From Escherichia phage LHE83, in the sequence record OQ561750: 64,000 bases of DNA; one strand, 5' to 3'. Positions within the stretch are counted from its first letter, which is position 1. Each line of letters begins with the position of its first letter. Made by a program: the position numbers and the translations under genes. Under the pieces are notes generated by a model, which did no database searches, was not told where the DNA came from, and saw only the letters and a list, made by a program, of their open reading frames with translations. Shown piece after piece: positions 1,018-3,297 of this stretch.

Positions 1018-1425
1018 ATGACTCGTATCAACCTTACCTTAGTATCTGAATTGGCTGACCAACACTTAATGGCTGAATATCGTGAATTACCACGTGTTTT
1101 CGGTGCAGTTCGTGAACGTATTGCCAAAGGGCAAGGCTTCTCTGATATCCCTAAAGACTTCCGCCTTGGTTCAGGGCACGTCAAGTTCTTTTATGACAAA
1201 ATTGGTTTTTTGTTCTTGCGACAAAATGCAATAATTGAGGAACTTCTGAAGCGTGGTTACCAGATTCAAAATACCCATGTAGACGTAGCGGATATTCCAT
1301 TACGGCTTATGAACGATTTCACTCCAACCGAAGCTGATATAGCTTTAAGCCAAGCTCGTCTGGACGAAAAAATTGCACAGCGTCCTACCTGGTACAAACA
1401 TTATGGCAAGGCTATTTACGCTTAA
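1018..1425 (+). CDS. denV: endonuclease V (pyrimidine-dimer DNA glycosylase)
   Basis: Start moved to internal ATG ([29 protein letters not shown]); near-identical to T4 DenV N- and C-termini from memory; track start is an upstream in-frame ATG. Confidence 0.85.
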
Positions 1426-1468
1426 TTAAATCCGTGATAGAATACTTCTATCAACTTAAGGAATAACA

Positions 1469-1768: not shown

Positions 1769-1929
1769 TAAAGGCAAGCCGGCCCTCTCCTCATGAACGT
1801 CGCGTCCTCTGAGTGATGGACCTTTCCCTACCTGTAATAAGGTCGAGCCCAAGTGCGGTAAAGGGTTTACATACGGATACATGGATGAATTATGTGCCAA
1901 GGAACGGCCCCACCAACTAAGAGACAATT

Positions 1930-3240: not shown

Positions 3241-3270
3241 GTTTACATCTCCTGTAGGTATGATACTATA
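3241..3270 (+). promoter_or_regulatory. early promoter cassette upstream of regB
   Basis: GTTTAC then 17 nt then TGATACTAT then CCTATCAAC; inverted repeat CTCCTGTAG/CTACAGGAG flanks the -10 and includes the Shine-Dalgarno. Confidence 0.55.
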
Positions 3271-3297
3271 AACCTATCAACTACAGGAGATTACAAA

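Follow-up and report, generated by a model that had tools for sequence, protein, structure and literature searches.

Bacteriophage T4 is among the best-studied viruses, and besides its transfer RNAs (tRNAs) it has, to our knowledge, only two recognised small RNAs, rnaC and rnaD, neither of which has been assigned a function. Larger orphan structured RNAs, GOLLD and ROOL, are often phage-borne and adjacent to tRNA genes; they measure 400-800 nucleotides (nt), form homo-oligomers and occur mainly in Firmicutes and in rumen and lake metagenomes, and their function is not known. The T4 RNAs, also called species 1 (rnaC) and species 2 (rnaD), are small stable phage RNAs (PMC9697503). Here an element of the T4-like Escherichia phage LHE83 is described, in a 64-kilobase (kb) stretch of its genome (the window, to which all positions refer). 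The closest relatives of this phage are SP18, QL01 and IME540. The element occupies a G+C-rich island (1769-1929, 161 nt) between an internal-protein-like gene and vs.8. Judged by sequence comparison, the island encodes a conserved, folded, untranslated RNA on the + strand, the helices of which vary by compensatory change, and this RNA appears to constitute a new family among the small structured RNAs of virulent phages. We consider it rather probable that the element is a stable, trans-acting phage small RNA whose junction binds one partner shared by the hosts of all the phages concerned.

Like rnaC and rnaD, the motif in phages outside the T4-like group is encoded with tRNA genes, on the same strand. 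However, a side-by-side reading of the sequences revealed no relation in sequence or structure to these RNAs, and the covariance model of the new family, R1, matches the 12 kb of T4 that include both genes only upstream of vs.8, at 1855-1904 of that locus. Furthermore, rnaC has a tRNA-like T-arm, which is absent from the window RNA, and the window RNA is far more widespread across phage families. A preliminary description of the island had pointed to the tRNAs and small stable RNAs of T4; the connection with tRNAs holds inside the tRNA clusters of non-T4 phages, whereas kinship with rnaC or rnaD is unsupported. In contrast to GOLLD and ROOL, the family consists of a shared core of ~44 nt within RNAs of 100-170 nt from phages of Gram-negative hosts, and it has no match in Rfam. 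Aptamers of three-way-junction riboswitches, such as the purine riboswitch, are alike in having a compact junction whose joining and loop nucleotides do not vary, helices that do, and a possible tertiary pairing of loop with tail; unlike them, the window family lacks cellular homologues and an expression platform and is not consistently found in 5' untranslated regions. Defence-decoy RNAs (pseudo-ToxI repeats and abiF-type antitoxin RNAs) are also non-coding and lie in accessory regions of virulent phages, and in one collected locus (L059) an abiF RNA and the motif share a tRNA cluster. These decoys copy an antitoxin RNA encoded by the host, whereas no host counterpart of the window motif was present in the genomes searched.

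The composition profile of the window bears out the impression, given in the preliminary description, of a G+C-rich island, and the sequence strings quoted there were found where it had placed them. The G+C content of 1769-1929 is 0.503 against a mean of 0.393 for the 64 kb; among window segments of 161 nt (standard deviation 0.04), just 0.17% are as G+C-rich. The conserved RNA itself spans ~140 nt (1771-1911, + strand), from immediately after the stop codons of the gene before it to the sequence GGCCCC, as defined by alignments of 25 and 41 T4-like versions; its G+C content (0.532) falls in the top 0.01% of the window, while the flanking genes have values of 0.357 (1469-1768) and 0.424 (1930-2457).

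At the centre of the RNA is a three-way junction (1827-1865, + strand) of helices P1, P2 and P3, defined by R1 and by pair counts over 63 sequences. In P1, C1827, C1828 and U1829 pair with A1862, G1864 and G1865, and G1863 is bulged. P2 (1830-1843) joins A1830-U1833 to A1840-U1843 (ACCU/AGGU) beneath a hexaloop, GUAAUA (1834-1839). P3 (1844-1858) contains the pairs C1844-G1858, G1847-C1856, C1848-G1855 and C1849-G1853, an A1846.G1857 mismatch, a bulged U1854 and the loop CAA. The joining strand UAA (1859-1861) is present in all 63 sequences, and the bulged position at 1863 is a G in 58 of them.

Covariation analysis across related phages, proposed in the preliminary description, uncovered compensatory changes. 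Among the 63 distinct cores, standard pairs fill 90.4% of the pair cells, compared with 31-43% when the partners are slid by 1-3 columns, and the covariation score is 0.366 compared with 0.04-0.09 in the slid controls. None of 500 shuffles reached the observed pairing values, a statistic that overstates independence, because the sequences are related. The three central pairs of P1 are intact in 63/63 sequences with three to five pair types each (AU29/UA18/CG8/UG7/GC1; CG46/GC8/AU4/UA4/GU1; CG44/GC12/AU7). An alternative P1 drawn without the bulge was discarded, as only 68% of its cells are paired, against 79-100% with the bulged G. The closing pair of P2 is A-U in 59 sequences, G-C in three and C-G in one, and is never unpaired; its three inner pairs were fixed by the search pattern and are uninformative. 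In P3, C1848-G1855 appears as C-G (46), U-A (13) or G-C (2), G1847-C1856 is G-C in 61/63, and the helix region measures 13, 14 or 15 nt. The loop of P2 reads GUAAUA (27), GUAACA (15), GUAAAA (12), GUGAAA (4), GUAGCA (3), GUAGAA (1) or GUAGUA (1). By comparison with the helices, the loop and joining nucleotides of the junction are almost invariant (CCUGURNNAAGG, C(N)AG...CGG, UAA and the bulged G). The helix cells contain 25 G.U against seven A.C combinations, an excess which points to an RNA of the + strand. Long-range pairs proposed by RNAalifold (GGUC:GGCC and GUGCG:UGUGC) showed no compensatory change and were set aside.

This part of the genome is conserved far more widely than the flanking genes. 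A blastn search with the 161 nt returned matches in 985 phage records, and a 61-nt core query in 987. The island is 80-88% identical in Mosigvirus, Tequatrovirus, Klebsiella T4-like phages, Karamvirus, Kanagawavirus and Erwinia phages, where the flanking genes have diverged, and blastn detected a 39-nt core in the 138-kb genomes of Vequintavirus (rV5-like phages). IMG/VR was scanned with two exact patterns, which gave 33 and 119 loci from which chance hits were then separated by inspection. Genuine loci come from T4-like and rV5-like phages, a 46-70-kb group (including Klebsiella phages Pylas and KpCHEMY26), a 360-kb jumbo contig and about eight uncultivated lineages; Pseudomonas phage PsgM04F also has the motif. 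As the patterns fixed CCTGT, AAGG and CGGTAA, the invariance of these letters in the resulting alignment (A2) is partly by construction, and the covariation evidence rests only on the positions left free; matches obtained by blastn without a pattern show the same core. Three uncultivated subfamilies have no BLAST match among isolated phages.

R1 was built from the 63 distinct cores of A2. In the window it gives a single match in 64 kb (1822-1871, + strand, 71.1 bits, E-value ~7e-26), and it divides the collected loci cleanly into members, at 48.6-71.3 bits, and all others, which reach 25.5 bits at most. The window element has the P1-P2-P3 junction, the UAA joining strand and the bulged G of the family, together with a score in the range of members. 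The island has no match in any E. coli genome, and a pattern scan of one genome per species for 185,579 bacterial and archaeal species yielded 13 hits, all low-scoring and coding-like. A host origin was rejected on these grounds, the 13 hits being chance occurrences with R1 scores of at most 25.5 bits. In the collections searched the motif is confined to phage sequences. Across families, the large terminase subunit is the only protein neighbour in common, and it is uninformative. A second, tandem copy of the junction is present in L005 (1262-1292 and 1375-1403), L025, L029 and L075 (829-878 and 915-963), representing Kanagawavirus-like and Karamvirus-like phages, with PEi26-like phages among the carriers, and one uncultivated lineage; their helices are independently compensated, and the second copy in L075 has the P2 loop GCAAAA. 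Two records labelled as Campylobacter phages of 137-143 kb, MG065644 (A147) and MG065646 (D1), match the rV5-type element at 90-93%. Both look like Vequintavirus types with a doubtful host label, and they were not counted as evidence for a Campylobacter host.

The element might instead be coding sequence. It would then belong to Vs.8, as the T4 annotation has it, with an N-terminus that is genuine or decayed, or else be a small open reading frame (ORF) on either strand. The T4 core (NC_000866 64,854-64,903, complement) lies inside the annotated vs.8 ORF (64,253-64,912; locus L041 1254-1913, minus strand), as it does in RB55 (L001 1487-2137), and is read there as MRDSRQPVIRSSPSAV...; in both phages vs.8 is annotated from an ATG within the hairpin Pa described below. 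The window retains a T4-type peptide string, PVIRSSPSAV, in the vs.8 frame, although two stops interrupt it, and in GADS24 the DNA of the region is conserved while the frame is shifted. In a coding test on 36 T4-like loci with a recognisable vs.8, a stop lies in frame between the core and the vs.8 start in 32, leaving an open frame in only four; counted from the core, vs.8 is in frame 0 in 12 loci, in frame 1 in 11 and in frame 2 in 13. The conserved Vs.8 protein always begins with M(K/R)(F/T/Y)(L/F). Insertions and deletions of 1 and 2 nt, not multiples of three, fall inside the most conserved part, and substitutions track base-pair partners rather than codon positions. The spread of frame phases, the stops and the fixed start of Vs.8 together imply selection on the nucleotides and not on a peptide. 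The ORF list likewise agrees with the preliminary description that no long + strand ORF covers the island, and contains only short mechanical ORFs: 1813-1920 (35 amino acids, GTG start), 1881-1979 (32 amino acids) and, on the minus strand, 1718-1927 (69 amino acids). None of these is conserved in relatives, although the last spans the island and some records annotate small ORFs there. A coding origin is thus scarcely credible. The idea of a degenerate coding remnant, which the preliminary description had considered, likewise fails, since the reading frame is not conserved in relatives. In T4 and RB55 the annotated start of vs.8 precedes by ~40 codons the one conserved in 32 of 36 relatives. 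The N-terminal extension of T4 vs.8 over the RNA is probably an annotation artefact, and the over-extension has probably been copied into many T4-like records. A 13-codon mini-ORF in the window (ATGTGCCAAGGAACGGCCCCACCAACTAAGAGACAATTATGA, 1892-1933), beginning ATGTGCC... and ending in an ATGA overlap with the vs.8 start, has a similar overlap in GADS24; as a candidate gene it was rejected, not being conserved in other relatives.

Searches against known RNA classes agree with the failure, in the preliminary description, to fold the island into a cloverleaf by eye. ARAGORN calls no tRNA or transfer-messenger RNA gene anywhere in the 64-kb window, and the Rfam tRNA model (RF00005) has no match at its gathering score, nor at E-values up to 10 on 1600-2100. 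An Infernal scan with Rfam 15 (4227 models), also suggested there, found no catalogued family in the window at gathering thresholds, and a permissive scan gave two chance matches only, both outside the core. In 24 loci of other subfamilies Rfam recovered only tRNAs and one abiF RNA, none of them over the motif. This abiF RNA (RF03085; 45.4 bits against a gathering threshold of 37) lies at L059 3624-3655 (minus strand), beside tRNA genes, with the motif following ~480 nt downstream on that strand, and may be an antitoxin-type decoy RNA. The core sequence is in no paper that we found, and keyword searches of the literature returned nothing on this locus. The family is thus described in no catalogue or paper searched; it may be among the unnamed candidates of large screens, such as an IMG/VR catalogue of 10,006 candidate RNAs. 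Overall, the proposal of a structured small RNA is supported by a fold that compensatory changes have preserved in T4-like and rV5-like phages and in several uncultivated lineages, whereas the further suggestion of a remnant is not, as the element is intact and under selection.

The genomic context of the element differs between T4-like and other phages. Of the 38 members outside the T4-like group, 28 lie at distances of 27-1034 nt from a tRNA gene, and in 28/28 such cases the motif is on the tRNA strand, a further sign of the strand from which the RNA is read. It begins 46-53 nt after a tRNA 3' end in L047 and L102, and lies between tRNA-Thr and tRNA-Gly in PsgM04F. In L046, L102 and L108, hairpins rich in G+C and followed by U-runs were read by eye after the motif. 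In the 46-kb/Pylas/PsgM04F type the motif is enclosed by stems of 7-9 base pairs (bp) shared with neighbouring units, which look like processing stems. Such positions, after a tRNA 3' end, within closing stems or before terminator-like hairpins, suggest a discrete small RNA. Arrays of stem-closed units between tRNAs were noted in L142 (PsgM04F, 1370-1660) and near the motif in L011, L013, L018, L027, L032 and L080; their long stems reuse the repeated arms AAGAGCAC/GUGCUCUU and GUUGUGA/UCACAAC, and one unit in L013 resembles an odd tRNA, which ARAGORN does not call. In T4-like phages, the stop codon of the preceding gene, whichever that is, directly adjoins the start of the element, a tRNA cluster lies 6-8 kb upstream on the same strand, and vs.8 follows in most cases, except in Klebsiella T4-like phages; vs.8 does not follow the element in any other phage family.

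This arrangement raises the main rival explanation, in which vs.8 has a cis-acting leader, the element serving as a riboswitch-like aptamer, or as an operator bound by protein, that tunes the translation or stability of the vs.8 message. In almost every T4-like genus 20-30 nt separate the element from the ribosome-binding site of vs.8, whichever gene is upstream; the element lacks a promoter or terminator of its own, and a junction of invariant nucleotides with variable helices is typical of an aptamer. However, no expression platform is apparent: the spacer from GGCCCC to the start codon varies freely, there is neither a conserved helix sequestering the ribosome-binding site nor a conserved terminator, and no terminator-like site was found in 1769-1929. 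A candidate pairing of CCUCUCC with the vs.8 ribosome-binding site was dismissed, being absent in the T4 type. Moreover, in Klebsiella phages another gene separates the element from vs.8, in rV5 the next gene has an annotated sigma-70 promoter of its own just after the element, and elsewhere, where no homologue of vs.8 is close by, the element is flanked by tRNAs or followed by terminator-like hairpins. Every widespread riboswitch class that we know of occurs in bacterial genomes, unlike this motif, which was found in no bacterial genome scanned. A leader function therefore seems unlikely, although the near-constant gene order of T4-like phages speaks for it.

The proximity to tRNAs could also reflect an RNA-processing device, that is, a new self-cleaving ribozyme or a structured recognition site of a host ribonuclease (RNase), by which polycistronic tRNA and early transcripts would be cut. 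The motif adjoins tRNAs that must be excised from long precursors, a small junction with ~20 invariant nucleotides is reminiscent of small ribozymes, and long closing stems of an RNase III-like kind surround the motif in one subfamily. Yet no Rfam ribozyme family (hammerhead, twister, pistol, hatchet or hepatitis delta virus-like) matches the window or the 24 related loci, and the joining strands of 0, 0 and 3 nt are unlike the hammerhead core. The 5' and 3' ends of tRNAs are made by RNase P and by RNase Z or exonucleases without such signals, and the T4-like copies are 6-8 kb from tRNA genes. We regard this explanation as improbable.

Still less can be said for the element acting as DNA, as a homing-endonuclease target, a recombination hotspot or a promoter maintained through exchange between phages, an explanation that we consider very improbable. 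A nearly identical core of 31-40 bp is common to unrelated phage families, SegB and other free-standing endonucleases are found clustered with the tRNA genes of phages (PMC13096335), and a promoter-like arrangement (GTTTACA, a 16-nt spacer and AATTAT) is present at 1866-1893. However, a DNA site would leave unexplained why four helices show compensatory changes and why G.U cells outnumber A.C cells. The cleavage motif of SegB, RAWTSGAAC (PMC13096335), is not found on reading 1822-1871; the nearest sequence is CATGAAC in Pa, which has T where S is required. A promoter at GTTTACA (1866) was rejected, as the sequence is absent in T4, and the -10 part is not conserved.

The behaviour of the element in tRNA operons, like that of a free-standing gene, and the fact that only the junction is common to all versions lead to the preferred reading of a stable, trans-acting RNA. 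In the window phage the element would be transcribed early, within the message from a promoter-like site at 1415-1443 (+ strand; TTTACG, 17-nt spacer, TAGAAT, with TG), which a consensus scan placed before the upstream internal-protein-like gene. A scan of the window found no terminator-like site between this promoter-like site and vs.8, and 1415-1443 is the likely source of the transcript carrying the element. The RNA would fold once the ribosome has left the upstream stop codon and would work as RNA, probably after excision, riding in T4-like phages on the early polycistronic message. Its junction would most likely bind one partner, which could be a defence factor or a protein active in tRNA or translation metabolism, and the RNA would then serve as a decoy, sponge or cofactor and not as a leader of vs.8.

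Several observations weigh against the trans-acting reading, besides the relatedness of the sequences and the letters fixed by the search pattern mentioned above. In an omics study of T4, RNAC and RNAD are the only small RNAs of this phage to be named (PMC9697503). As already noted, the element of T4-like phages comes with neither a promoter nor a terminator, and vs.8 almost always follows it directly, as it would follow a cis-acting leader; a simple terminator scan with a U-run rule did not call the hairpins after the motif in L046 and L102. In the window, the supported fold has a nearest-neighbour energy of about +0.9 kcal/mol, which falls to -10.7 once the fold is completed, while an unrelated minimum-free-energy fold reaches -41.7. 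Single-sequence folding of the island is no better than that of shuffles on either strand (z = -0.11 and +0.78), and from the T4-like sequences by themselves RNAalifold recovers next to no structure, its consensus being weak (-5 kcal/mol). Given these weak thermodynamics and the short helices, the fold would need stacking, tertiary contacts or a bound partner.

A more specific proposal, which we regard as doubtful, is that the RNA is an anti-defence decoy mimicking the anticodon arm, and perhaps the variable arm, of tRNAs with GUN anticodons (Tyr or His type). P2 with its flanks reads C-U-G-U-A-A-N, which recalls CUGUAAA in the anticodon loop of tRNA-Tyr; this resemblance, over seven letters, is a lead. 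All variants of the P2 loop obey the anticodon-loop rule Y-U-NNN-R-N, with GUA, GUG and, in one copy, GCA, and a hairpin GUC-NNN-GAC directly follows in several families, as the variable arm does in tRNA-Tyr. Presented on a rigid junction, C-U-G-U-A-A-N would engage host nucleases that attack tRNAs with GUN anticodons, or enzymes that read such tRNAs, and titrate or block them. The retron-associated PtuAB targets tRNA-Tyr. The same tRNA is the target of the Septu defence system (PMC13096335). Unlike a tRNA, the RNA has no cloverleaf, D-arm, T-arm or CCA end, and the supported P2 stem leaves a loop of 6 nt rather than 7; a GNRA-like loop geometry would explain most of the P2 loop variants equally well. 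If the proposal is correct, the decoy would represent a new class of RNA counter-defence common to T4-like, rV5-like, jumbo and other virulent phages.

With this element T4 would have a third small RNA, hidden under an over-extended ORF annotation, clearly supported by covariation and common to unrelated families, in which it travels with tRNA genes. It offers a concrete handle on the role of the non-tRNA cargo in phage tRNA clusters, regions now linked to escape from tRNA-cleaving defences. The finding would also revise the gene model of vs.8, both for T4 and for the many genomes whose annotation followed that of T4. Should the partner prove to be a defence or translation factor, the invariant 44-nt junction would be small enough for biochemical and structural work.

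Outside the junction, the peripheral parts of the T4-like versions were judged on 41 distinct sequences. Helix P0 (1771-1824, + strand) pairs AAGG (1771-1774) with CCUU (1821-1824) and encloses hairpin Pa. Each of its four pairs is formed in 39-40 of the 41 sequences, and five compensated versions exist: AAGG:CCUU, AAGC:GCUU, AAGA:UCUU, GGAA:UUCC (T4) and GGAG:CUCC (L033). Pa (1790-1813, + strand) has an outer stem, CUCA (1790-1793)/UGAG (1810-1813), and an inner stem, ACG (1797-1799)/CGU (1803-1805). As read from the alignments, this position holds a hairpin in every subfamily, with a different sequence each time (CCUCAU/AUGAGG in T4, CCUCA/UGAGG in L033, CACAU/AUGUG in rV5, and GAAUG/CAUUC or GAGUG/CACUC in the 46-kb type), and in L035, L064, L070 and L078 the C and G of one pair were lost together. 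A tentative pseudoknot (+ strand) may join the tail UUAC (1867-1870) to GUAA (1834-1837) in the P2 loop. Its four pairs are kept in 33-41 of the 41 sequences; PG7 has GUGA:UCAC with both sides changed, four others have GUGA:UUAC with a G.U pair, and uncultivated-phage family A has GUAAC:GUUAC. This GUAA:UUAC type of loop-tail pairing was not found in the other families. They carry quite different peripheral domains on the same junction, including long closing stems and loop-tail pseudoknots of their own, of which one swaps GGGUA:UACCC for GGGAG:CUCCC among non-T4 families. The 3' tail (1882-1911, + strand; UGGAU...AUGUGCCAAGGAACGGCCCC) is nearly invariant in T4-like versions. A tail hairpin, GCCA[AGGAA]UGGC, was rejected, as it is either invariant or broken (A.C in the window) with no compensatory change. 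The following segment (1912-1932, + strand), outside the RNA, comprises a spacer free to vary in length and sequence among relatives, a weak ribosome-binding site (AAGAGA) and the ATG of vs.8 (1930-1932). Karamvirus-type versions (L004/PG7 1296-1345, L024 and L040) have an extra hairpin, UCAG-GGUC-CUAGC...GCUAG-CUGA, between the junction and the conserved tail; its stem is compensated between PG7-like (CUAGC/GCUAG) and PEi26-like (CCAUC/GAUGG) forms.

The gene upstream of the island had been taken for ipI in the preliminary description, a label that the analysis does not support; the ORF at 1469-1768 is internal-protein-like, begins with MKTYQEFITEA, and its homologues in relatives are labelled 'internal head protein' or 'hypothetical'. 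Three internal-protein-like genes (17-613, 655-957 and 1469-1768) share the N-terminus MKTY(K/Q)EFI(A/T)EA, a leader of the capsid-targeting type. They flank denV (1003-1425), and each has its own early-promoter-like site, such as that at 1415-1443. The gene that follows the island, vs.8 (1930-2457), encodes a protein with Walker A-like (GGRQTGKT) and Walker B-like (LLIIIEEP) motifs. No Pfam family was found for Vs.8 or its neighbours, and the names 'terminase large subunit' and 'endoribonuclease' given to it in relatives are apparently without basis. A further promoter-like site, GTTTACA...TGATACTATAAA, is present near 3241-3272 of the window.

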